From: Candidatus Hodarchaeota archaeon
GTDB taxonomy: Archaea; Asgardarchaeota; Lokiarchaeia; Sigyniarchaeales; SOKP01
DNA: 64,000 nucleotides
Assembly: GCA_048887225.1 (NCBI GenBank)
Contig: JBHLJY010000012.1
Span: forward strand, 10,710 to 74,709
Reading direction: 5' to 3'
The position numbers and the translations under genes were made by a program. The notes below the pieces were generated by a model that saw only the letters and a list, made by a program, of their open reading frames with translations, ran no database searches and was not told the origin of the DNA. Below are positions 1,898 through 62,317 of the stretch, piece after piece (positions within the stretch are counted from its first letter, which is position 1; every line of letters starts with the position of its first letter).

Positions 1898-2575
1898 TTA
1901 TTCTTTTAGTCTTTGGATAAGATCTGGCCAAAACACTTTTTTAAATTCCCCTGAGTAATTGACTTTATCAATTTTCAATTTTATTGCGCTTTTTGAACAG
2001 GCATTTACACAAGTACCACAACTTATACATTTAGACGGATCTAAATCTGTTTTTAGCTTTTTTCCTTGGTCATTTACTCGCTCTTTATCAGATTTATAAA
2101 AAGCTCCAGTAGGACATACTTCGGCACACGACATACATGAAATGCATTTATTCCAATCTACAGTAATATTACCTTCAACATAGACTTTTGCTTTTCGTTG
2201 GATTTTTTCGCAGTTTACTATCTTATAATCTAATTTTGGCACGACCTTCTTCACAACAATATCTAAATTATCTAATTCAACGCCCTTCCCATCTTTTTTT
2301 AAAGTTATCGCAGAAAATGGACACATATAGGCACAAGTTCCACAGTACGAACATTTAAATGCATTAGGGATATCTGGGATTAAATCTTCAGTCGTTACCC
2401 TTATCTTACCTTCCAGATTTGGATCACAAATAGCTCCTTTAGGACAAACTTTAGTACACGTTCCACAGCCAACGCAATTTTCTAAGTTAAATTCTATTGC
2501 CTGATCTTTAGTAAAAAAGTTCATAGCAATTTCGTTAATTTTTTCGTTTCTTAATTTTTTAACTCTTGGATACAT
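1898..2575 (-). CDS. Polyferredoxin (4x [4Fe-4S]; MvhB/FwdF-like)
   Basis: Four CxxCxxCxxxC motifs; last gene of hdrB-hdrA-mvhD operon. Confidence 0.9.
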   Translation of the reverse strand: MYPRVKKLRNEKINEIAMNFFTKDQAIEFNLENCVGCGTCTKVCPKGAICDPNLEGKIRVTTEDLIPDIPNAFKCSYCGTCAYMCPFSAITLKKDGKGVELDNLDIVVKKVVPKLDYKIVNCEKIQRKAKVYVEGNITVDWNKCISCMSCAEVCPTGAFYKSDKERVNDQGKKLKTDLDPSKCISCGTCVNACSKSAIKLKIDKVNYSGEFKKVFWPDLIQRLKE

Positions 2576-2580
2576 TTTCT

Positions 2581-3006
2581 TTATACCTCCGTTTTTAGTG
2601 GATTAGGTCCTAATTCCTTTAATTCTTCCACGTATTCCTTGACGATTTCAGTTAATTCGGCACCTTCAGAAGCAGATACAAAGGTATATTTTACCCTTTT
2701 TGGATTTATCCCGAATTGTTCTAAATATCGATGAAGAATTGGCATTTTTCGAACTGTTTTATAATTACCTTCTACATAATGACAGTCGCCAGGATGGCAG
2801 TGACTAACTAAAACACCATCAGCCCCGTTCATTAGAGCATCAATTACGAATTGAGGATCAACACGTCCTCCGCACATGACTCTAATGATTCTCAAATTTG
2901 CCGGTCGTTGCATACGAGATGTTCCTGCTTGATCCGCTCCTGCATAACTACACCAATTGCAAAAAATTCCCAATATATATGGATTAAATTCTGTTTGACT
3001 CGCCAT
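2581..3006 (-). CDS. mvhD: MvhD [2Fe-2S] subunit
   Basis: FCNWCSYAGAD, RVMCGGRVD, HCHPGDCHY and VSASEG motifs. Confidence 0.95.
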   Translation of the reverse strand: MASQTEFNPYILGIFCNWCSYAGADQAGTSRMQRPANLRIIRVMCGGRVDPQFVIDALMNGADGVLVSHCHPGDCHYVEGNYKTVRKMPILHRYLEQFGINPKRVKYTFVSASEGAELTEIVKEYVEELKELGPNPLKTEV

Positions 3007-3008
3007 TT

Positions 3009-4997
3009 TTATTCACCTCTAGGATTAGATTCTTGTTTGACCGCGGTTTTTATCATAGGTAAGATCTGTGAATCTCCAAATTGATTTTGGACGATTGCTT
3101 TATTAGGACATGCTGATACGCATGTTCCACATCCTTTACATAATATTTCATTTATCTCAGCAATTCTTTCATATTCATTAAATGTTATCGCATTAAAAGC
3201 ACATAAGCTTAAACAACTTTTACATCCAGAACATAAATGACTAAGAACATAGGAGTAATAGGGTTCAATTTCTACTTCTCCTTGCGCCATTAATGCTGCT
3301 GCACCAGAGGCAGCACCTTTAGCCTGTGCGACTGTATCTGGAATATCTTTAGGTCCCTGAACAGTTCCTGCAACAAAAACACCATCTGTGAGAGTATCGA
3401 CTGGGCGTAACTTTGGATGAGCTTCCATAAAGAAACCATCTTCAGATCGTTGTACATTAAATAATCTCGCTACATCTTCGGCATCACATCGCGGTTCAAG
3501 ACCAATTGACAGAACTAACAAATCCGCTTTAATTTCCACTTGTCTCTGGAGTAAAGTATCTTCACCACGCACAATAACATTATGTTCATCATCCTCGTAA
3601 ACTTCTGCAAGTCTTCCACGAATAAATTTAATTCCGTAGTTTTTTCCTGCTGATTCATAAAATTCTTCGTATCCTTTTCCAAAAGCTCTTACATCCATGT
3701 AAAATATATGAATATCTGCTTTTGGATGTTTTTCTTTATATTGGCGTGCTTGTTTTACAGCATACATGCAACATACTCTTGAACAATATTTATTGCCTTT
3801 TTTTGTAAAATCTCTACTACCAACACATTGAAGAAAGACTATACTATGAGGATCTTTCAAATCTGAAGGTCGTTTGGGCTTACCTTCTGTAGGTCCAAAT
3901 GAGCTTAAAAGACGTTCCATCTGAAAACCTGTAATTACATTTGGATATTTACCGAAACCATATTGTTTTAATACTGTTGGATCGTAAGGATCCCAGCCAG
4001 TGGCTAATATAATAGTCCCAACTTTAACATCTAAATATTCTGGTTTGTCATCATATCTAATAGCTCCAGCAGGACAAACTTCAGCACAAATACCGCATCT
4101 AATACAATGATCCATGTCTATTGTATATTCTCCTGGAACTGCCTGGGGGAAAGGAATATAAATAGCTTTGCGATCTTTCATTCCTAAATCAAATTCATTT
4201 CCACATACCACAGGACATTCTTCAGCACATGTACCACAGCCAGTACATGTTTCTTGATCAATGTAATGTGGTTTTTTCATAATAGTAACGTCAAAATTTC
4301 CGACATAACCAGAAATATCAGTTACTTCTGAATAAGTTAAAAGTTCAACATTTTTAGCATTTGCTACTTCAGACATTTTTGGGGTAATAATACAAGCACT
4401 ACAATCCATTGTAGGGAAAGTTTTATCAAGTTGTGCCATATGCCCCCCAATAGTCGGAGTCTTTTCTACTAAATATACTTTAAATCCTTGATTTGAAAGA
4501 TCTAAAGCGGCATTCATACCAGCAATACCAGCACCTACAATTAAACAAGCGGGTTCGACTTTTACCTTGGTTACCTCTAAAGGTACTAATTTACTGACTT
4601 TCGCCACGGCCATTCTAATATGGTCCTTAGCTACCTCAGTCGCACCTTCAGTATCATATAAATTGACCCATGTACAGTGTTCTCTGATATTTGCCATTTC
4701 AAATAAAAACTGGTTTAAACCGGCTTCTTCACATGTTCGTCTGAAAGTAGGTTCATGCATCCTTGGTGAACACGATGCAACAATAACTCGATTAACTAAC
4801 TCATTTTTTATATCATCCTTGATCATATTTTGACCTATATCGCTACACATAAATTTATACTCGCGTGCGATCACGACATTTGGCAAAGTTTTGGAATACT
4901 CTATTAAATCAGGAACTGAAACGATCCCACCAATATTAATCCCACAATGACAAATATATACACCTATTTTTACATCAACTTCACCCAACTTCCTCAC
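3009..4997 (-). CDS. hdrA: Heterodisulfide reductase subunit A (Cys form)
   Basis: GVYICHCG, GAGIAG, LDKTFPTMDCSAC, QCVGSR, YCSRVCC, GPKDIP and C-terminal ferredoxin. The start may be the TTG a few codons inside. Confidence 0.97.
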   Translation of the reverse strand: MRKLGEVDVKIGVYICHCGINIGGIVSVPDLIEYSKTLPNVVIAREYKFMCSDIGQNMIKDDIKNELVNRVIVASCSPRMHEPTFRRTCEEAGLNQFLFEMANIREHCTWVNLYDTEGATEVAKDHIRMAVAKVSKLVPLEVTKVKVEPACLIVGAGIAGMNAALDLSNQGFKVYLVEKTPTIGGHMAQLDKTFPTMDCSACIITPKMSEVANAKNVELLTYSEVTDISGYVGNFDVTIMKKPHYIDQETCTGCGTCAEECPVVCGNEFDLGMKDRKAIYIPFPQAVPGEYTIDMDHCIRCGICAEVCPAGAIRYDDKPEYLDVKVGTIILATGWDPYDPTVLKQYGFGKYPNVITGFQMERLLSSFGPTEGKPKRPSDLKDPHSIVFLQCVGSRDFTKKGNKYCSRVCCMYAVKQARQYKEKHPKADIHIFYMDVRAFGKGYEEFYESAGKNYGIKFIRGRLAEVYEDDEHNVIVRGEDTLLQRQVEIKADLLVLSIGLEPRCDAEDVARLFNVQRSEDGFFMEAHPKLRPVDTLTDGVFVAGTVQGPKDIPDTVAQAKGAASGAAALMAQGEVEIEPYYSYVLSHLCSGCKSCLSLCAFNAITFNEYERIAEINEILCKGCGTCVSACPNKAIVQNQFGDSQILPMIKTAVKQESNPRGE

Positions 4998-5977
4998 CTA
5001 TTTTCTTTAAAAAAGGTTCCAAGGAAATAAATGGAGGTACTCCACTCAAATCATGCTTTTTTACTAGACCAAGGCTTTCAGGTTCCATACCTAATGCCAG
5101 ACCTAATAATTGTGTGTAATAAATTACAGGTATTTTAAAAGGAGCATCAATTTTATCTTTAAAAATGTTATTTATTTCTACTTGTCCTAAATCTAGTTGT
5201 AAATGACAGAATGGACAAACAGTTATTATTGCATCGGCCCCAGTTGCAACAATGTTCTCTAATTTTTCTCTTGTAAAATCCAAAGAAATTTCTTTAAACG
5301 CTCCCCTTACACCTCCTCCTGCTCCGCAACACATTCTTTTATCTTTGTAATCTAAACTTTTGCAACCAGTAGCCTCTACTAGTTCGTCTAAAAAGCGTGG
5401 ATCTTCAACTTCAAGATCCCATGGTCTAATTTCTCCAGGTTTTAAAAGATGACACCCATAATGAACAGCTACATTTAAATCTAATTTTTCTTTTCGACCG
5501 TATTTTGTTCTATTTTTTATTTTTTCAAGTCCTATATCGTGATATAAAACTTCGATAATATGTTTAATATCAATTTTTCCCTTATATTCTCGACCGATTT
5601 TAGCGAGATGTTGATTAACCATTTTCCTTTTTTCTTTATTGTGCTTTAATGTATGATTTACTTCAAGCAAACTTCCATAACACCCATTACACATTAATGC
5701 AATATCAGTACCATTTTCTTCTGCAATTGTTATATTTCTGGCTCCAATTACTAACCATGTGGTGATATCAAATCCTCGGAAAACTCCTGGGGCGGGACAA
5801 CACGAGGCACCCTCCATATCGACCAATTCAATGCCTAATTTCTCAAATACATTTCGAGTAGCCTGCTCTATAAAAGGGTAACGATTAGGAATTGTGTCTA
5901 ATTATCTAAATGATAAATTAGTTTACACATCCTAAAAATAAGCTGTATGTCAGTTTTTTATTCTTTGATTTTCTCAT
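4981..5977 (-). CDS. hdrB: Heterodisulfide reductase subunit B, split by a 31-nt intron-like insert (exons 5923-5977 and 4981-5891; 321 aa spliced)
   Basis: SCCPAPG, CNGC, HYGCH, CCGAGGG and CPFC motifs. The N-terminus MRKSKNKKLTYSLFLGC lies upstream out of frame and joins to give FLGCVIPNRYP. Confidence 0.9.
5892..5922 (-). other. Putative bulge-helix-bulge mRNA intron in hdrB
   Basis: UUAGGA-U-GUGU-AA^A-CUAAUUUAUC-loop-GAUAAUUAG-ACAC-AA^U-UCCUAA. Cutting after the second bulge nucleotide on each strand restores the frame. Confidence 0.8.
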
Positions 5978-6121
5978 CTTATTCGATCTTATTAGTTTGA
6001 TTAACTTAGAGTTGTAAATTAATGAAATTTTAAAAAATTTGTCTTTATTATTTATGCTCTTATTGGACTCTTACTTTAAATTATAAAACTTTAAAATAAA
6101 ATATTATAATATAATTATAAT

Positions 6122-6412
6122 TTATTTTATTAACTCTAATATCTTTCTACCCAGTTTTTTCATAACTGGGACATGTCCTTGAGAGAATAAAAAATCATTA
6201 AGAAATATTACTGGTGGATCAAGTTCCCCATACTTTTCAATGACTTTTTCTGATGTAATTTTTTCTTGTTTTAAATTAACCTTATCCTTTATATCTGAAA
6301 ATTCAGTCACTAATCTTTCAACGATACTAAGAGTTCTACAACATTTAGAACAAGTATTTTCTGGATCTTCAGAGACTAATATTAAAATTTTAATCTTATC
6401 TTTTATAGCCAT
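6122..6412 (-). CDS. Small thioredoxin/glutaredoxin-like protein
   Basis: CSKCC motif, plus a KYG-x3-PPVIFLND...QGHVP thioredoxin-like tail. Confidence 0.75.
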   Translation of the reverse strand: MAIKDKIKILILVSEDPENTCSKCCRTLSIVERLVTEFSDIKDKVNLKQEKITSEKVIEKYGELDPPVIFLNDFLFSQGHVPVMKKLGRKILELIK

Positions 6413-6718: not shown

Positions 6719-7384
6719 ATGGTAATTATAACTACTAAAAAACCTTTAAATGAAATTTTGAACGTTATTGAGGGACATGAAAGAATCGCGATAATTTCAT
6801 GTGGATCTTGTGCCGCTTTATGTCAAACAGGAGGAACTGAAAGCGCTAAAGAGATGGAGGAAATTTTGAAAAAAGAAGGTTATAAAGTTATTATTACACT
6901 GGTATCTGAAGATGTTTGCGATAATAGAGTTATGAAGAAAGATTTAAGACGGATCGATGCAGATATCAGCAATTCAGACGCAATTTTAACATTAAGTTGT
7001 GGATTAGGTACCCAATCTATAACAGAGGTGATTAAAGATAAATACCCAAATATGCCCATTTTTGTTAGTACGAACACAGAATTTATGGGTATGACAGAGA
7101 GGATTGGTAGGTTTTATATGAGATGCCTAGGTTGTGGTGATTGTTTATTAAACGAAACAGCAGGCATTTGTCCAATTACAACGTGCGCTAAATCACTTAT
7201 GAATGGTCCATGTGGGGGCCAGGTGAAGGGTAAATGCGAAGTTGGGAACTATGAAAAGGATTGTGGATGGATATTAATTTACAATCGATTAAAAGAATTA
7301 GGAAGATTAGACGCATTCTCTAAATTACGAAAACCTAGAGATTGGAAAGAAACTGGACATCAAAGAGTATTAGTATGGAGGTAG
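6719..7384 (+). CDS. metV: Methylenetetrahydrofolate reductase small subunit MetV
   Basis: CGSCAALCQTGG, LSCGLG, CLGCGDC, CPITTCAKSLMNGPCGG and CEV...CGW motifs. Confidence 0.92.
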   Translation: MVIITTKKPLNEILNVIEGHERIAIISCGSCAALCQTGGTESAKEMEEILKKEGYKVIITLVSEDVCDNRVMKKDLRRIDADISNSDAILTLSCGLGTQSITEVIKDKYPNMPIFVSTNTEFMGMTERIGRFYMRCLGCGDCLLNETAGICPITTCAKSLMNGPCGGQVKGKCEVGNYEKDCGWILIYNRLKELGRLDAFSKLRKPRDWKETGHQRVLVWR

Positions 7385-7392
7385 AATAAAAC

Positions 7393-8322
7393 ATGGAAGT
7401 AAAACCTATTTATTCTAAGTTAGGTGATAAATTATTAAATGGTGATTTTATCTTAACTGGCGAATTGGAGCCAGAAAAAACCTGTGATCTGTCACATACT
7501 ATCCAAGAAGCCAAAGAGATAGCACCTTATGTTATTGCAGCTAATGTTACAGACAGCCCTTTAGGAATTGTGACTATTAATTCAATGGCAGCGTCCCATA
7601 TTATCCAAGAGGAAACTGGTTTAGAATGTGTTTGGCAATTAACTGTACGAGATGTGAACAAATTAGGTATTGCTGGAATGATCATGGGGGCTCATGCTTT
7701 AGGGATTCGCAATATTCTCTCACTTACAGGTGATCACCCAAATATGGGAGATATGCCAGAATCAAAACCAGTATTCGATCTCGATTCTGCAAATTTAATA
7801 AAGCTTGTAAAAGATATGGTGGAAAAACAAGCGATAAACGGCAGTAAAATAGAGAGCCCTCCAAAGATACACGTCGGCGCAGCAGCTAATCCGAATGCAG
7901 ATCCTATGGAGGCTGAAATCTTGAAGATTGGTAGAAAAGCTGAAGCAGGAGCAGAATTTTTACAAACTCAAGTTGTATACGATATTGATCGAACTATTGA
8001 ATTTTTAAGAGGGATTCAGAAGTATAAAGTACCAGTACTTCTTGGTATCTTTCCAATGAAATCATATGCAATTGCAAAAGGATTTGATATGTTTGTTCCT
8101 GGAGTTGACGTACCAAAAGAGGTTCTGGAGAAATGGAAAAAAGTTAAAACAGATATTGTTAATAAAAAAGAAAAGAAGCAAATATATGATCAGTTAAATT
8201 ATGAATTTTTCAAACCATTTATTACAGAACTTAAATCAAAAAGATTATTAGCTGGTGTTCATTGTATGGCCGTTCATTATACAAGAATCTTTCCAAAATT
8301 GATTGAGGTAATCAAAGTTTAA
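7393..8322 (+). CDS. metF: Methylenetetrahydrofolate reductase MetF
   Basis: GELEP, ANVTDSP, QLTVRD, LTGDHP, VFDLDS and KAEAGAEFLQTQ motifs. Confidence 0.93.
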   Translation: MEVKPIYSKLGDKLLNGDFILTGELEPEKTCDLSHTIQEAKEIAPYVIAANVTDSPLGIVTINSMAASHIIQEETGLECVWQLTVRDVNKLGIAGMIMGAHALGIRNILSLTGDHPNMGDMPESKPVFDLDSANLIKLVKDMVEKQAINGSKIESPPKIHVGAAANPNADPMEAEILKIGRKAEAGAEFLQTQVVYDIDRTIEFLRGIQKYKVPVLLGIFPMKSYAIAKGFDMFVPGVDVPKEVLEKWKKVKTDIVNKKEKKQIYDQLNYEFFKPFITELKSKRLLAGVHCMAVHYTRIFPKLIEVIKV

Positions 8323-9133: not shown

Positions 9134-11209
9134 TTACACTTCCGCAGAATCTTTTACTAATCCAATACTACGATCTGAATCATACTTCTTCTCATCTATA
9201 ATGAGAATTTCTTCTACTTCTAATTTCTGAATGTTGATCATAGCTCCGAGTTGATTATTTGTAAAATGGTTTTGAATTAATGCTCCAGAGGGACACGCAG
9301 CAACACAAGTTCCGCATCCTTTACAGAGTGCAGGGTTTAGAACGGCAATCTTTTTGAATATATCAAAATCAATCGCACCAAAGGGACATAGAGATTGACA
9401 ACTCTTACATCCTGAACAAATATGATCAAGGACATTTGTGTAGAATGGTTCTATTTCGAATTCCCTATTTGCCATTAATACAGATGCGCTAGAAGCTGCG
9501 CCTTTCGCTTGAGCAACTGTATCAGGAATATCCTTTGGACCTTGAGCAACTCCAGCAACAAATATTCCATTCGTTAAGGTATCTACCGGTTTTAATTTTG
9601 GATGAGCTTCCATGAAAAATCCGTTCGAAGATCTCTGAATATTAAACATTTGAGAAACCTTATTGGCATCCGCTCTTGCTTCTAAAGCGGTAGATAAAAT
9701 TAACAATTCTACCTTTACTTCAATTAAATGTTGGTATAATGTATCTTCAGCTCTAATAATTATATTATGATCTTCATCTTCGCTAACTTCAGCAATTTTT
9801 CCTCTAATGTAATTAATACCATACTCTCTTGCAGCAGATTCGTAGAATTCTTCGTAGTCTTTACCGAACGCTCGGAGGTCGATATAAAAAATATATATTT
9901 CAGCCTCTGGATGTTTCTCTTTATATTGTCTAGCTTGCTTTGTCGCATACATACAACAAACTCTAGAACAATATTTATGACCTCCTTCTCTGAAATTTCT
10001 ACTGCCCACGCATTGGAGGAATGCAATACTATGGGGAGCTTTGAGATCAGAAGGTCTGACTGGTTTTCCTAATGTTGGACCATACGAACTTAATAAACGT
10101 TCCATTTGAAGTCCCGTGATTACGTTAGGACACGTGCCATATTTAAATTGTTCGAGTTCTGATGGATCAAATGAATCCCATCCAGTCGCAATAATAATTG
10201 TTCCAACTTGAATATCTAAATATTCAGGTTTTTCATTAAAATTAATGGCTTGAGCTTCGCAAACATTAAGCTTCGCGCAAATCCCACATTGAATGCATTT
10301 TTCCATATCAATTGTGTACTTTCCCGGTACCGCTTGTGGAAATGGTATATAAATGGCTTTCCTTGTACCCATGCCTAATTCAAATTCATTTCCACAGATT
10401 ATGGGACAAGTATCAACACAAGCACCACAAGCATTACATTTTTCTTGATCAACGTAATGCGGTTTTTTCTTTATGGTAATATTAAAATTTCCCACATATC
10501 CTGCCACATCCACAACCTCAGAATAGGCCATTACTTCAATATTTTCATTTCTTGCTACATCAACCATTCTAGGGGTTAATATACAAGCAGAACAATCCAT
10601 TGTAGGGAATGTTTTATCTAATTGGGTCATATGACCTCCTATTGTAGGACTTCTCTCAACTAAATAAACTTTATAACCTTCATCAGCAAGATCTAAAGCA
10701 GCATTCATACCTGCAATTCCGCCACCTACAACTAAACACGCAGGGTTTACTTTTACCTTTGTTACCTCTAAAGGTTCCAATTCTCTTGCCTTCGCAACTG
10801 CCATATTGATATGATCTTTTGCTATCTCATAGGCGCCTTTAGGATCTTTCATATTAACCCAAGAAGCATGTTCTCTGATATTTGCCATTTCAAATAAAAA
10901 CTGGTTTAAACCGGCTTCTTCACATGTTCGTCTGAAAGTAGGTTCATGCATCCTTGGTGAACAAGCAGCAACAACAACTCGATTAATAAAACCAGCCTCA
11001 ATATCTTTTTTAATTAGTTCTTGTCCAATATCACTACACATGAATTTATATTCTTGTGCTAAAATAACGTCAGGAAGGCTTAATGCATAATCTTTTAGTT
11101 TGAATAGATCTATCACTCCAGCAATATTAATACCACAATGACAAATATAAACACCGATTTTAGGTTTTTCCTTATTGCTAATTTCTATTTTTTCCTTAAT
11201 TTCTGTCAA
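9134..11209 (-). CDS. hdrA: Heterodisulfide reductase subunit A (second Cys-form copy)
   Basis: Full HdrA motif set, as in 3009-4997. Confidence 0.97.
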   Translation of the reverse strand: MTEIKEKIEISNKEKPKIGVYICHCGINIAGVIDLFKLKDYALSLPDVILAQEYKFMCSDIGQELIKKDIEAGFINRVVVAACSPRMHEPTFRRTCEEAGLNQFLFEMANIREHASWVNMKDPKGAYEIAKDHINMAVAKARELEPLEVTKVKVNPACLVVGGGIAGMNAALDLADEGYKVYLVERSPTIGGHMTQLDKTFPTMDCSACILTPRMVDVARNENIEVMAYSEVVDVAGYVGNFNITIKKKPHYVDQEKCNACGACVDTCPIICGNEFELGMGTRKAIYIPFPQAVPGKYTIDMEKCIQCGICAKLNVCEAQAINFNEKPEYLDIQVGTIIIATGWDSFDPSELEQFKYGTCPNVITGLQMERLLSSYGPTLGKPVRPSDLKAPHSIAFLQCVGSRNFREGGHKYCSRVCCMYATKQARQYKEKHPEAEIYIFYIDLRAFGKDYEEFYESAAREYGINYIRGKIAEVSEDEDHNIIIRAEDTLYQHLIEVKVELLILSTALEARADANKVSQMFNIQRSSNGFFMEAHPKLKPVDTLTNGIFVAGVAQGPKDIPDTVAQAKGAASSASVLMANREFEIEPFYTNVLDHICSGCKSCQSLCPFGAIDFDIFKKIAVLNPALCKGCGTCVAACPSGALIQNHFTNNQLGAMINIQKLEVEEILIIDEKKYDSDRSIGLVKDSAEV

Positions 11210-11221
11210 ATCTTATCACTC

Positions 11222-12172
11222 CTAAATTAATTGCTCTTTTACGATATTTACGAATGGTTCGATGGACATAAAAGGAGACACGTTCTTTAAATCATGTGTT
11301 TTTTCTAATCCTAATCTAATTGGATTTAGTCCCATTGAAACTCCAAATAATTGAGTAATATATATAACAGGGATTTTAAATGGTTCTCCAATCTCATCTT
11401 TAAATAAGTTATTTACTTCAACTTGCCCCAAATCAAATTGTAAATGACAGAACGGGCAGCAATCTACGATAATATCTGCGCCTGCATCTCTCATATTCGT
11501 TAACTTTTCGCGCGTAAAATCTGCTGCAATCTCTTTAATCGCACTTCTTACTGCGCCACCCGCACCGCAACACATAAATTTATCCTTGTAGAATATGCTT
11601 TTCGCACCAGTTAATTCAACAAGTTCATCAAGGAATTTTGGGATATTAGCTTTACAGTTCCAAGGTCTTTTATCGGAAGGTTTAACAATATGGCACCCAT
11701 AATGAACTGCAACCTTTAAATCTTTAAATTTATATTTAATATGATCCTCAACATAGTCCTTACCCATATCTAAGTATAATGCCTGAACAATATGTTTAGG
11801 CTCTTGACTACCCTTAAACTCACGACCAACTTTAGCAAGAAGCTCATTTACTTGTTTCTTTTTTTTAAGATCGTGTTGAAATTCATACCATGCATCTCTT
11901 AAACTACCATAACAGCCATTACATCCTGTAATAGGATCAACCCCCAATTCTTCTGCAATTGATAAATTTCTCGCTGCCATTAATTCCCATGTAGGAATAT
12001 GAAATGCTCGAAACACTCCAGGTGCGGGACAACACGACGCCCCCTTTATTTCTAATAATTCCGCTCCAAGCTCACAGAATACATCTCTTATACTTGTTGA
12101 AATCATAGGGTATCTGTTGGGTATTATACATCCTAAAAAAAATCCATACCTAAATTTTCTTTCTAATATCAT
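11222..12172 (-). CDS. hdrB: Heterodisulfide reductase subunit B
   Basis: FFLGCIIPNRYP, SCCPAPG, HYGCH, CCGAGG and CCPFC motifs. Confidence 0.96.
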   Translation of the reverse strand: MILERKFRYGFFLGCIIPNRYPMISTSIRDVFCELGAELLEIKGASCCPAPGVFRAFHIPTWELMAARNLSIAEELGVDPITGCNGCYGSLRDAWYEFQHDLKKKKQVNELLAKVGREFKGSQEPKHIVQALYLDMGKDYVEDHIKYKFKDLKVAVHYGCHIVKPSDKRPWNCKANIPKFLDELVELTGAKSIFYKDKFMCCGAGGAVRSAIKEIAADFTREKLTNMRDAGADIIVDCCPFCHLQFDLGQVEVNNLFKDEIGEPFKIPVIYITQLFGVSMGLNPIRLGLEKTHDLKNVSPFMSIEPFVNIVKEQLI

Positions 12173-12213
12173 TATTTCAACCCAAATATTAATATAGAAA
12201 TATAAAATAAAAT

Positions 12214-12795
12214 TTAAGCAACCATTATTTCCACTTCTTTTAATCTCTTGATTTTGTCTAATAACTCTTTAAAACCACTTAATTTCATGAGAGTTTGACA
12301 TTCCTCAAGTTCTTTCGGAAATGAATGAATTGTAGGTGGTAAAGCAGGTAACCCTAATGATTCTCGTAAATCTCTCCAATTTTTATGAGCTGGAGCATTT
12401 ACCGGTACTCCATGACCTGTTTCATAGAATAATGCGGATAAATTAAAATGTGATTCTAAAAGGTCACCTTCCTCCACAGCAATATTTCTTAACTTTATTA
12501 TTATGTCCGTAATTGGAATATTTCTTGGACAGCGTTCATAGCACGTATAACAAGTTGAACAAAACCAGATTTTAATATCTTTTAGAACGCTCTCATCACC
12601 TAATAAGGCTCTTCTAACTACAGAACGCGTACTCATAGCAGTTCTTCTACCTGATGGACACCCCCCCGAACATGTCCCGCAGTTTATGCATGAGCGTATT
12701 TGCTCTAAACCAGCATCTACAAATTTCTGCGTAATTTTTGAATTAATTGTGTTGTATATCTTACGTATAATGTACTTCTCTACATTATCGCTCAT
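12214..12795 (-). CDS. hdrC: Heterodisulfide reductase subunit C
   Basis: CINCGTCSGGCPSG and WFCSTCYTCYERCPR motifs. Confidence 0.95.
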   Translation of the reverse strand: MSDNVEKYIIRKIYNTINSKITQKFVDAGLEQIRSCINCGTCSGGCPSGRRTAMSTRSVVRRALLGDESVLKDIKIWFCSTCYTCYERCPRNIPITDIIIKLRNIAVEEGDLLESHFNLSALFYETGHGVPVNAPAHKNWRDLRESLGLPALPPTIHSFPKELEECQTLMKLSGFKELLDKIKRLKEVEIMVA

Positions 12796-39878: not shown

Positions 39879-40156
39879 TTTTCAACAACTATATTTTTTA
39901 ATTACTGGTAATTATATATCGATAATAATTAATTACTAGTAATTATTCGATGATATTTAAATATTGGCCTTTTCTATCCTCAAATTTAAGAAATTTATTT
40001 TATCAGTAATAATAAATTATTTAATCATAAAAAAAAAGTTAAATCTTTACCCAGAATTCAGAGAAATTTAAACTTTAAAATTTCTATACACTATAAAAAA
40101 AATAAAAAACCAAAGAAGTGAAGAGCTTTTTAAATTTTTACCATATTTTTAAATTA

Positions 40157-40723
40157 TTATTTATTATTTATGCTTGCTATATCCTCCTTTTTTTCATAAT
40201 CACCAATACCTACAAGTTTATCAAACTCAGTACTCTTTAACAAAGTTCTAATTTCTTCTTCAGCTTCGGGGGAACGATGAGTTGTAGGGGGTACTCTACT
40301 CAGATTATATGATTCTCTCAGGTTATTCCACTTCTTATCATTAATAGGAACTCCATGCCCCCATTTATAAAGAAATCCGCATAAAGCTTTATGTGGGCCT
40401 TGCATGATACCCTTTTGAACTGCTAAATTTCTCAAGAAAATAATCATATCTGTAACTGGCACACCTCGAGGACATCTTTCAAAGCAGGTATAACATGTCG
40501 AGCAAAACCACAATTCTTTATCTGAAAGTACTTCATCAAGTCCTAATTGAGCTTTTCTTATTAAAGATCTTGTTCTCAAAGCAGTCCTTCTTCCCGAAGG
40601 ACATCCTCCAGTACAAGTACCACATTGAATACATGACCCAATTTCTAATAATCCCGCGTCTCTCAATAAATTAGCTAATTCATCAGTGAATTCTGTAATT
40701 TTATCAGACTTTAATTCTTCCAT
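40157..40723 (-). CDS. hdrC: Heterodisulfide reductase subunit C (orphan copy)
   Basis: CIQCGTCTGGCPSG and WFCSTCYTCFERCPR motifs. Confidence 0.95.
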   Translation of the reverse strand: MEELKSDKITEFTDELANLLRDAGLLEIGSCIQCGTCTGGCPSGRRTALRTRSLIRKAQLGLDEVLSDKELWFCSTCYTCFERCPRGVPVTDMIIFLRNLAVQKGIMQGPHKALCGFLYKWGHGVPINDKKWNNLRESYNLSRVPPTTHRSPEAEEEIRTLLKSTEFDKLVGIGDYEKKEDIASINNK

Positions 40724-60858: not shown

Positions 60859-61006
60859 TTATAATTATTTTAAATTTTGATTAAATCAGAATTTTTTAAT
60901 ATCTTCCCAAATAAACTATCACATCCTAATTTTTTTTTATTAATTGGGAAATAGAATTTTAAATTAAAAAAACAAGAAAAAAAACATAAAAAAAAAGTGA
61001 ATTGAA

Positions 61007-62317
61007 ATGGTCAAAGTAGCATTTATGCAACTCTCAGATTGTTGGGGGTGCCACCAGAGCTTAGTAAATTTACATTTAAGTCTCTTACCGGTACTTCCTG
61101 CTCTTGAGATTGTATATTGGCCAGCTGTAGTCGATTTTAAACATGATTCTTTAGTAGCTAGAGCTGACGGAGAGATCATTGTAGGTTTTATCGAAGGTTC
61201 AATTAGAACTAAACAAGACTTAGAAAATGTTAAACTGATGAGACAAAAAAGTGCAATCATAGTAGTTTTTGGTTCTTGCGCTTGCTACGGTAATGTAGCT
61301 GGATTAGCCAACCAATGGGAGATTAGTGAATGCATTGATAGAAAATTCAATACGGTAGAGAGTAAAAGTTCTGGTGGTGGAGAGCCTATACAACATGTTC
61401 CTGGATTTGAATCAAAGATAGTAAACGTTGATGAAGTCATCAAGGTTGATGCTTATATGGCAGGATGCCCTCCAAAGCCAGAACATATTTTCAGTGCAGT
61501 AGGATTTTTACTAGGTCAAAAGCCATTCCCTATGAATGATCTTGCTTTTTGTAATGATTGTTCATTAAATCAATCGGGATGTCTCTTAGATGCTGGTAAA
61601 TTATGTTTTGGCCCAATTACCAGCATTGGCTGTTCGATGAAATGTCCTAATGCAGGTAATCCTTGTGTGGGATGTATGGGACCTGCTAAAACGGTTGCTG
61701 CCCGCGCTTTAAAGTTAAACGATATGACTAAAAACCTCGCTTCCGCAAGTTCCGGTGATATAAAGAGCACGTATGAATTTCTCACGTTATTTTTAAACGT
61801 GCCATTAATGGCGGGTTTTGACTTAGTAGGGGATATTCTAAAACAAGTAAAGAAGACGGGTGCTCCAACAACTCCATTAGCAAACTTACCACCTGATACA
61901 GAAACTATTGCTTCTAATATATTAGGATTTTTAAGGGGCAATCGAGACTTCACAGAGATCTCAAATGTTTGCGATACATGTGATAGGATTATCGGCAGTA
62001 AATCAACGATGACGAACGTGAAGAGAGATTATGAGGGGCTTCCAAATTTAGATGATTGTTTAATTGAACAAGGTTATATTTGTATGGGTCCCGTTACCAA
62101 AGCTGGCTGTGGTGCTTTATGTGTTCGGGTTAATGCTCCATGTACAGGTTGTTATGGCCAAACTGAATGGGGTGTTAATCAAGCAGAAAGGTTTGCTGAT
62201 ACGGTACTTAAAGGATTTAACGTAAGCTTATCTAAAGAAGCTTTACTTGCTCAGGTTAAAGATCCTATTGGTACTTTCGAGAAATTTACATTAGCATCAA
62301 GAAAAGGAGGCGTATAA
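61007..62317 (+). CDS. mvhG: MvhG/VhuG small subunit with a duplicated C-terminal Fe-S domain
   Basis: SDCWGC, EGSIR, GSCACYG and GCPP motifs; two C..C...CL...C.GP.T..GC...C...PC.GC blocks. Confidence 0.92.
   Translation: MVKVAFMQLSDCWGCHQSLVNLHLSLLPVLPALEIVYWPAVVDFKHDSLVARADGEIIVGFIEGSIRTKQDLENVKLMRQKSAIIVVFGSCACYGNVAGLANQWEISECIDRKFNTVESKSSGGGEPIQHVPGFESKIVNVDEVIKVDAYMAGCPPKPEHIFSAVGFLLGQKPFPMNDLAFCNDCSLNQSGCLLDAGKLCFGPITSIGCSMKCPNAGNPCVGCMGPAKTVAARALKLNDMTKNLASASSGDIKSTYEFLTLFLNVPLMAGFDLVGDILKQVKKTGAPTTPLANLPPDTETIASNILGFLRGNRDFTEISNVCDTCDRIIGSKSTMTNVKRDYEGLPNLDDCLIEQGYICMGPVTKAGCGALCVRVNAPCTGCYGQTEWGVNQAERFADTVLKGFNVSLSKEALLAQVKDPIGTFEKFTLASRKGGV

Follow-up and report, generated by a model that had tools for sequence, protein, structure and literature searches.

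Introns excised at motifs of the bulge-helix-bulge (BHB) type occur in archaeal tRNAs (Marck and Grosjean 2003; preprint 10.64898/2026.10.13.758758). For mRNAs, the literature that we searched, with incomplete coverage, contains essentially only the crenarchaeal intron in cbf5 pre-mRNA (Watanabe 2002; Yoshinari 2006; Yokobori 2009, PMC2738675) and no case from Asgard archaea; the preprint cited above, on Asgard tRNA introns, mentions mRNAs 0 times. Asgard and TACK archaea possess an (alpha-beta)2 splicing endonuclease EndA, in Asgard archaea with an L1 loop, a type linked to broad substrate specificity (PMC5829648) and also to the cbf5 pre-mRNA intron (PMC2738675). In this work, we analyzed a 64,000-nt stretch of DNA from Candidatus Hodarchaeota archaeon, hereafter called the window, in which the gene hdrB is interrupted by 31 nt at positions 5922-5892. 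We propose that this insert is in all probability a tRNA-type BHB intron (HBh' class) that is spliced from the hdrB pre-mRNA. This proposal is made because its removal restores the protein, the cuts fall in the canonical register, the insert shows conservation and covariation, both exons are under purifying selection, EndA and RtcB are encoded in the genome, and sister cases exist.

Two other systems offer points of comparison. In HAC1/XBP1 splicing, the protein endonuclease Ire1 cuts out a short intron flanked by stem-loops and leaves a 2',3'-cyclic phosphate, and a tRNA ligase or RtcB joins the exons with a change of reading frame. In gene 60 of phage T4, a gap of tens of nucleotides containing a stop codon and a hairpin is skipped during translation.

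An insert of 31 nt interrupts hdrB

The window spans positions 10710-74709 of contig C12 of the source genome, G000 (3.27 Mb, ~31% G+C, 98% complete). On its minus strand, hdrB starts with an ATG at 5977-5975 and runs over 18 codons to 5924; A5923 is the first base of a split Ile codon. Unspliced, the frame continues AAC TAA and stops at 5920-5918. A second frame, intact and 303 aa long, begins inside the insert (IPNRYPFIEQ..., from 5892) and ends at the stop codon 4981-4983. Re-reading of the minus strand thus confirmed a first-pass annotation of this DNA, which had described hdrB as broken after codon 18 by 31 nt carrying an in-frame TAA and shifting the frame. The boundaries of the insert are free to slide by up to 2 nt, owing to an AA repeat, with no change in the product. 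The parts of the gene are:

5923-5977, minus strand: hdrB exon 1, consisting of ATG, 17 codons and the first base of the split Ile codon; it encodes MRKSKNKKLTYSLFLGCV and holds the first Cys of the N-terminal CCG motif
5892-5922, minus strand: 31-nt intron, with a predicted circular product; homologous copies in loci L189 and L193, absent from 23 orthologs
4981-5891, minus strand: hdrB exon 2, consisting of the last two bases of the Ile codon, 302 codons and the stop; two CCG domains

The protein of the second frame matches the Pfam CCG profile twice and aligns with solved HdrB chains (E = 4e-103) from their residue 11-12 on, 10-11 residues of these chains preceding the start of exon 2. Both CCG domains of an HdrB are therefore present, and the N-terminal five-Cys motif is complete only once the 31 nt are excised because its first Cys is encoded in exon 1. 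Excision brings back the spacing C-x31-CC-x35-C-x2-C, in which every one of the five Cys is a ligand of a noncubane [4Fe-4S] cluster of HdrB (PMC10861901). The public annotation of the contig reports a 303-aa HdrB initiated at an ATT at 5892 (MPNRYPF...; window 4981-5892, minus strand). No tRNA was detected in the window with ARAGORN, and Rfam gave nothing at 5600-6200.

Predicted fold and cutting register

The RNA of positions 5940-5880 folds with a minimum free energy (MFE) of -14.5 kcal/mol (z = -3.7), and 0 of 200 shuffled sequences were as stable. The predicted elements are as follows, L189 and L193 being two relatives described below:

5925-5928, minus strand: 5' strand of the central helix H, GUGU, in the exon; pairs with 5894-5897
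5894-5897, minus strand: 3' strand of the central helix H, ACAC, in the intron; invariant in the window, L189 and L193
5922-5924, minus strand: 5' bulge AAA, with a predicted cut between 5923 and 5922
5891-5893, minus strand: 3' bulge AAU, opposite the unpaired U5929, with a predicted cut between 5892 and 5891
5898-5921, minus strand: inner hairpin h', CUAAUU(U)AUC, loop AUUUA, GAUAAUUAG; 9 bp, directly after the 5' bulge
5930-5935, minus strand: outer exon helix h, UUAGGA, paired with UCCUAA at 5885-5890 and offset by one base; 95.8% of cells paired

With the caveat of U5929, which lies unpaired between the outer and central helices, this RNA thus presents a GUGU/ACAC helix with two bulges, flanked by an inner helix of 9 bp and an outer one of 6 bp. 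The helices, the bulges and the inner hairpin are those described in the first-pass annotation; as a refinement, U5929 is paired with A5893 in the MFE fold, so that the motif is not a strict hBHBh'.

Cuts after the second nucleotide of each bulge would remove exactly 31 nt and yield GGAUGUGUAA/UUCCUAAU, i.e. ...LFLGCV/IPNRYP, where the slash marks the junction. The spliced junction to be expected in RNA is GGAUGUGUAA/UUCCUAAUCG, and the junction-spanning tryptic peptide would be LTYSLFLGCVIPNR. Three registers (site, length) restore the hdrB peptide, and just one of them combines a 4/4 central helix and an inner stem. Across the genome, 228,448 (site, length) pairs, or ~6.6e-4 of the total, show a 4/4 central helix together with an inner stem of 4 bp or more. 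The same register, fitted in sequence to the tRNA-Ser(CGA) of G000, places its intron after position 37, the canonical site; among the seven ARAGORN tRNA intron calls tested, this was the only one with a clean motif at the predicted coordinates.

A genome-wide scan for the BHB pattern combined with merging open frames was also tried and rejected. It gave no excess over controls in which the 3' partner was shifted by 1-3 nt (800 versus 771-814 matches, or 64 versus 48-70 loci in a strict version) and no peak at any insert length. The scan was dropped in favor of homology-defined sites because adjacent genes swamp the signal. A blastn-short search found no other copy of the 31-nt insert in G000; by this search, the insert is not a repeat family.

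Relatives without and with the insert

We collected 23 orthologous loci without insert from genomes and metagenomes (55-81% aa identity), all of which read (F/Y)LGC(V/I)(I/V/M)PNR(Y/F)P across the site. The predicted spliced DNA GGATGTGTAA/TTCC is identical letter for letter to the uninterrupted GGATGTGTAATTCC of L005, and the spliced peptide LFLGCVIPNRYPFIE agrees with the orthologs. The first-pass annotation was therefore right in that excision gives FLGC-V-IPNRYP; the orthologs (LFLGCVIPNRYPFIE) are nonetheless a closer match than the paralog that it cited for comparison. G000 and nine representative relatives have one hdrB of this type each. On a side note, the same-genus genomes G001-G009 hold no hdrB closer than 62%, and orthologs at 74-81% come from genomes under the names Hermodarchaeota or Promethearchaeota; the hdrB-hdrA-mvhD cluster may be a lateral acquisition, or the congeners may have lost it.

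Relatives bearing an insert were found by searching a protein collection with exon 2, in which several truncated calls of 271-281 aa appear among full-length HdrBs of 305-334 aa. For the insert-bearing relatives, the gene callers give products of 277-278 aa. Searches of genome and metagenome contigs with the exon-2 protein returned only uninterrupted genes. The metagenomic loci L189 (85% aa identity) and L193 (80%) carry a 31-nt insert at the same site, with 27/31 and 25/31 positions identical to the window and an invariant ACAC+AA core, and share with the window a homologous 5' leader. The small upstream gene is also found in L189 (98 aa, versus a thioredoxin-like open reading frame of 96 aa in the window). 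L190-L192, three records from different samples (75% aa identity), have at the same site, and with the same junction, an unrelated 30-nt hairpin insert with a different 9-bp stem, UUGGUUUUU/AAAAAUCAA. Three other truncated calls are not introns: L194 lies at a contig end, L195 has an upstream in-frame stop and L196 has unrelated 5' sequence.

The four variants (window, L189, L193 and L190) fold into the same architecture. Pairing extends to 90.8% of the cells of their alignment and drops to 32-48% if the partner is slid; in four pairs both sides have changed, only 2-3 of 500 shuffles reaching the observed values, and in L190 the inner hairpin has undergone a compensatory replacement by a different stem. 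The covariation in orthologs that the first-pass annotation proposed to check is thus present in these four sequences.

Two contigs bear on the reality of the insert. Over 3391 nt, insert included, Logan contig L200 shows 100% identity to the window; it possibly comes from the same sample. The other contig, 212 nt long and 98% identical, belongs to a different study and extends from exon 2 fourteen bases into the insert. In a subsample of the source study's raw reads, roughly 1 in 100, the site is not covered.

Constraint on the exons and on the insert

Among insert-bearing genes, the ratio of nonsynonymous to synonymous rates (dN/dS, Nei-Gojobori) in exon 2 is 0.06-0.095, with the proportion of synonymous differences (pS) saturated at 0.62-0.70, and none of the four insert-bearing lineages has further stops or frameshifts. 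The inserts of L189 and L193 differ from that of the window at 13-19% of positions, versus 62-67% for synonymous sites. On these figures the insert is far more conserved than neutral sites, three to five times so with respect to synonymous ones. Exon 1 gives the same picture in the window, L189 and L193: within the codons for YSLFLGCV, five sites vary (within YSLF), all five synonymously, and the ATG and frame are retained. For this frame to run on into exon 2, 3n+1 bases have to be taken out.

Each insert-bearing gene has a close insert-free twin, similarity starting exactly at the first base of exon 2, while exon 1 and the upstream sequence of the twins are unrelated to those of their partners. 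Changes were placed on branches by means of outgroups and are given as synonymous/nonsynonymous counts:

window (insert) and L188 (insert-free twin): 94.5% DNA identity from exon 2 on; 20/8 and 18/6 changes, respectively
L189 (insert) and L201 (insert-free twin): 90.8% DNA identity from exon 2 on; 27/10 and 33/6
L190 (insert) and L197 (insert-free twin): 99.0% DNA identity from exon 2 on; 6/0 and 3/3

By these counts, constraint is no weaker on the insert-bearing branches than on the insert-free twins. A relaxation of selection on exon 2, the sign by which the first-pass annotation would have recognized a pseudogene, is therefore not seen.

In L201 and L197, hdrC lies directly upstream of hdrB. 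L188 is probably hdrC-linked as well, since its mere 23 nt of upstream sequence resemble the hdrC-linked type. The intron site would thus coincide three times with a recombination boundary, an odd feature. The simplest reading would be homologous exchange between insert-bearing and insert-free alleles, with a tract that ends where heterology begins. A model with two paralogs, both forms being present in one genome, was rejected, as 0 of the genomes examined hold both, although a repeat collapsed in a metagenome-assembled genome (MAG) could hide such a pair.

Splicing enzymes and other interrupted genes

G000 encodes two EndA paralogs of ~200 aa each. The one on C1, at 186656-187261, has the Tyr/His/Lys triad and aligns with the chain 3P1Z_B of A. 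pernix across the loop region (NKPR versus EKPR); in the one on C3, at 60977-61582, Ser replaces the catalytic His, as in a beta subunit. From these sequences, the enzyme of G000 is expected to be of the (alpha-beta)2, broad-specificity type. RtcB is encoded on C13, by a gene that itself carries a 29-nt BHB insert.

Eight sites were tested, hdrB and seven others, all chosen by homology and not by structure. They were found by tblastn with the open reading frames of G000 itself and with those of 205 kb of a same-genus genome, G001. All peptide-restoring registers were listed for five sites plus uL11, and at each of these six sites exactly one register bears the full motif. The sites are:

hdrB: 31 nt; full motif in one register
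C2:11573-11602, minus strand: csp (cold-shock protein), 30 nt, TGHVK/WFDYRKGYGF
C5:191631-191663, minus strand: FGGY sugar kinase, 33 nt, ITNQ/RET
C2:89906-89935, plus strand: acs (acetyl-CoA synthetase-like), 30 nt, DTYWQ/TETGG
C13:33458-33486, plus strand: rtcB, locus L202, 29 nt, GGVGY/DINCG; UUGG/CCAA helix and 9-bp inner stem
C4:65567-65594, minus strand: uL11, locus L186, 28 nt, frame-shifting; outer 7-bp, central 4-bp and inner 8-bp helices; PPIGPA-V-GPTGIN
C4:215764-215799, plus strand: thiolase, 36 nt; motif at the homology-defined break point
C1:321212-321243, plus strand: DeoC/LsrF-like aldolase, 32 nt; motif at the homology-defined break point

Pfam profiles run unbroken over the junctions (RtcB, 1-46 and 48-426; FGGY_N, 1-78 and 79-245). 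The uL11 gene is the only one in G000, and its N-domain profile is matched from position 21 only. A second insert of ~36 nt, with a less clear motif, is also observed upstream in uL11. The rtcB ortholog of G001 is uninterrupted (492 aa), and a structure-free census against 205 kb of G001 counted one split gene in G000 (rtcB) and 0 in G001. If the rtcB insert is spliced, the ligase would have to join its own mRNA.

We do not find it credible that a set of disabling insertions should by chance all show the geometry of a splice motif, and in the right register. We consider it reasonably likely that, in this Asgard lineage, tRNA-splicing enzymes routinely cut and rejoin mRNAs as part of gene expression. 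At least eight genes, including those for a ribosomal protein, central metabolism and RtcB, would carry BHB mini-introns of 28-36 nt, gained repeatedly, twice at the hdrB site, and marking recombination boundaries between intron-bearing and intron-free alleles.

Genomic context of hdrB

Downstream of hdrB, the first-pass annotation had correctly recognized an hdrB-hdrA-mvhD-ferredoxin operon. The genes in question and the cognate hdrC are:

3009-4997, minus strand: hdrA, whose start overlaps the hdrB stop by 17 nt
2581-3006, minus strand: mvhD (FlpD family), downstream in the cluster
1898-2575, minus strand: polyferredoxin-like gene with four Fer4 motifs, the last of the cluster
40157-40723, minus strand: cognate hdrC, 76% identical in aa to the hdrC directly upstream of hdrB in L003; intact, unlinked

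The cognate hdrC, hdrA and mvhD are all intact in G000. Normally hdrC lies directly upstream of an hdrB of this type; here it stands alone, 34 kb away. The bases after its stop codon, 40090-40145 (ATGGTAAAAATTTAA...CTTCTTTGG), bear a faint resemblance to the beginnings of hdrB in the orthologs (ATGGTACAAAATAAA...TTTCTTGG); they are possibly what is left, after decay, of a former hdrB 5' end. Another hdrC-hdrB-hdrA cluster, paralogous and complete, with an HdrB 58% identical in aa, is located 5 kb away at 9134-12795 (minus strand), and metV and metF, the methylene-tetrahydrofolate reductase genes, occupy 6719-8322 between the two hdr clusters.

Discussion

The core of the first-pass annotation, a BHB intron cut by the tRNA machinery, is supported by all the tests that we ran, and one can propose the following course of events. 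In the transcript, exonic GUGU would pair with intronic ACAC, leaving a 3-nt bulge on each strand, with the intron hairpin inside and an exon-exon helix outside. The (alpha-beta)2 EndA would cut after the second nucleotide of each bulge, and RtcB would join the exons and circularize the 31-nt intron. The mature mRNA would be translated into a 321-aa HdrB (...LFLGCV/IPNRYP...) with a complete five-Cys CCG motif, and unspliced RNA would give only a 19-aa peptide. Cleavage, ligation and the intron circle are steps that we infer from the sequence. On the other hand, the first-pass annotation had also suggested a post-transcriptional switch for the operon, an idea that finds no support, genes without relation to hdrB having similar inserts as well (those for a ribosomal protein, a ligase, a kinase and a cold-shock protein). 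Since the inserts are spread over such genes, tolerated and spreading introns fit better than gene-specific regulation.

Several points weigh against splicing. In the predicted fold the motif is of the HBh' class, its outer helix being offset by one base, and not a strict hBHBh'; in the MFE fold, the U5929-A5893 pair gives a 5-bp central helix and a 3' bulge of only 2 nt. Only 3/4 of the central pairs form in L190, the L193 variant folds weakly (z = -1.3), and the covariation comes from a small sample of four sequences. Moreover, hdrC is not adjacent to this hdrB, and the paralogous hdrC-hdrB-hdrA cluster might cover its function. Exon 2 could be refreshed by recombination independently of its own function. 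Finally, so close to the start codon, transcription-coupled translation could compete with folding.

Some of these points would be accommodated by an inactivating insertion. One would then regard hdrB as redundant or as a pseudogene, and an insert-free copy linked to hdrC would keep refreshing its exon 2 by gene conversion or recombination. The three insert-bearing/insert-free pairs, 91-99% identical from the first base of exon 2 and unrelated upstream, are what such exchange would leave; hdrC is not in its customary upstream position, the window contains a second hdrCBA cluster, and related sequences at 90-95% identity occur in the source sample. Yet since the split from their twins the insert-bearing branches have accumulated mostly synonymous changes, as the insert-free ones have, and both forms have been found together in none of the genomes examined. 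An insert-free donor could not refresh exon 1 without loss of the insert, whereas the conserved codons of exon 1 vary only synonymously and keep ATG and frame in three lineages. The insert itself is conserved well beyond synonymous sites, and the same architecture splits the single uL11 gene and rtcB. We thus regard inactivation as unlikely. Still less likely, in our opinion, is the expression of exon 2 alone from an internal start (ATT 5892 or TTG 5826), the 18 codons and the hairpin serving as a leader or regulatory element. The deposited annotation (303 aa, MPNRYPF) and the 277-278-aa calls elsewhere speak for such a truncated HdrB, but in this protein the first noncubane cluster would be short of one of its five Cys ligands (PMC10861901), (F/Y)LGC is kept in 23/23 orthologs, and exon 1 is constrained at the protein level in a frame that joins exon 2 only after removal of 3n+1 bases. 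Nor does this explanation extend to rtcB or the FGGY kinase, where the inserts are in the middle of a domain.

One would also wonder whether the RNA stays uncut and the ribosome bypasses the 31 nt, by hopping as in T4 gene 60 or by some other recoding. A stop two codons past the junction codon and a hairpin in the gap bear a superficial likeness to the gene 60 gap. However, the take-off and landing codons do not match (GUA A.. versus ..A AUU), what is conserved corresponds to a BHB (a 4-bp exon-intron helix and two 3-nt bulges), and these features recur in seven other genes with different junction codons, which makes bypassing very improbable. An assembly or sequencing artifact, for which nothing was found in favor although the MAG is a short-read assembly, can be given hardly any weight: the same insert is present in the Logan contig identical over 3391 nt and, in part, in a contig from another study, and diverged copies are found in L189 and L193, which stem from other projects.

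If hdrB is indeed spliced, protein-only splicing of mRNA would not be confined to one gene or one phylum, and would be found here in the Asgard archaea, the group closest to eukaryotes. It would provide a testable case of the way in which coding sequence can acquire and retain introns before any spliceosome exists. In practice, current annotation mis-calls such genes, as illustrated by the public HdrB that starts from an ATT and is devoid of a cluster-binding Cys, and metabolic reconstructions of Asgard MAGs may wrongly score them as truncated or broken. The truncated calls are at the same time the handle by which the insert-bearing relatives were found.

Comparison with known systems

The archaeal tRNA introns (Marck and Grosjean 2003; preprint 10.64898/2026.10.13.758758) share with the hdrB insert the geometry, the register, the enzymes and a similar size. 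The non-canonical ones of Asgard archaea are very numerous and, as proposed for hdrB, point to repeated, apparently independent gains at BHB-compatible sites. The hdrB insert differs in that its host RNA would be an mRNA, with no tRNA body to aid recognition and with a reading frame that must be kept.

A parallel can be drawn with eukaryotic HAC1/XBP1 splicing, XBP1 being mentioned in PMC5435141. Both would combine an endonuclease cut with joining by a tRNA ligase, and both would change the reading frame. However, Ire1 and its motif are unrelated to EndA and the BHB, and HAC1/XBP1 splicing is a regulated stress switch. As for T4 gene 60, it relies on matching take-off and landing codons and on a nascent-peptide signal, with no cut in the RNA; these features are absent in hdrB.

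The closest counterpart of the hdrB insert is the cbf5 intron (Watanabe 2002; Yoshinari 2006; Yokobori 2009, PMC2738675). Both belong to hosts with a hetero-oligomeric EndA of broad specificity, and both are patchily distributed among relatives, which implies gain and loss. On the other hand, cbf5 splicing was demonstrated by RT-PCR (reverse transcription PCR) and in vitro cleavage, whereas we infer that of hdrB. Unlike that of cbf5, the hdrB site holds two unrelated introns in different lineages, and its host has several more interrupted genes. The cbf5 gene encodes an RNA-modification enzyme and belongs to Crenarchaeota; hdrB, here from an Asgard archaeon, encodes a catalytic subunit that serves energy metabolism. 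The hdrB intron would therefore belong to a kind already known from crenarchaeal cbf5, and would extend it to a new phylum and to a new functional class.

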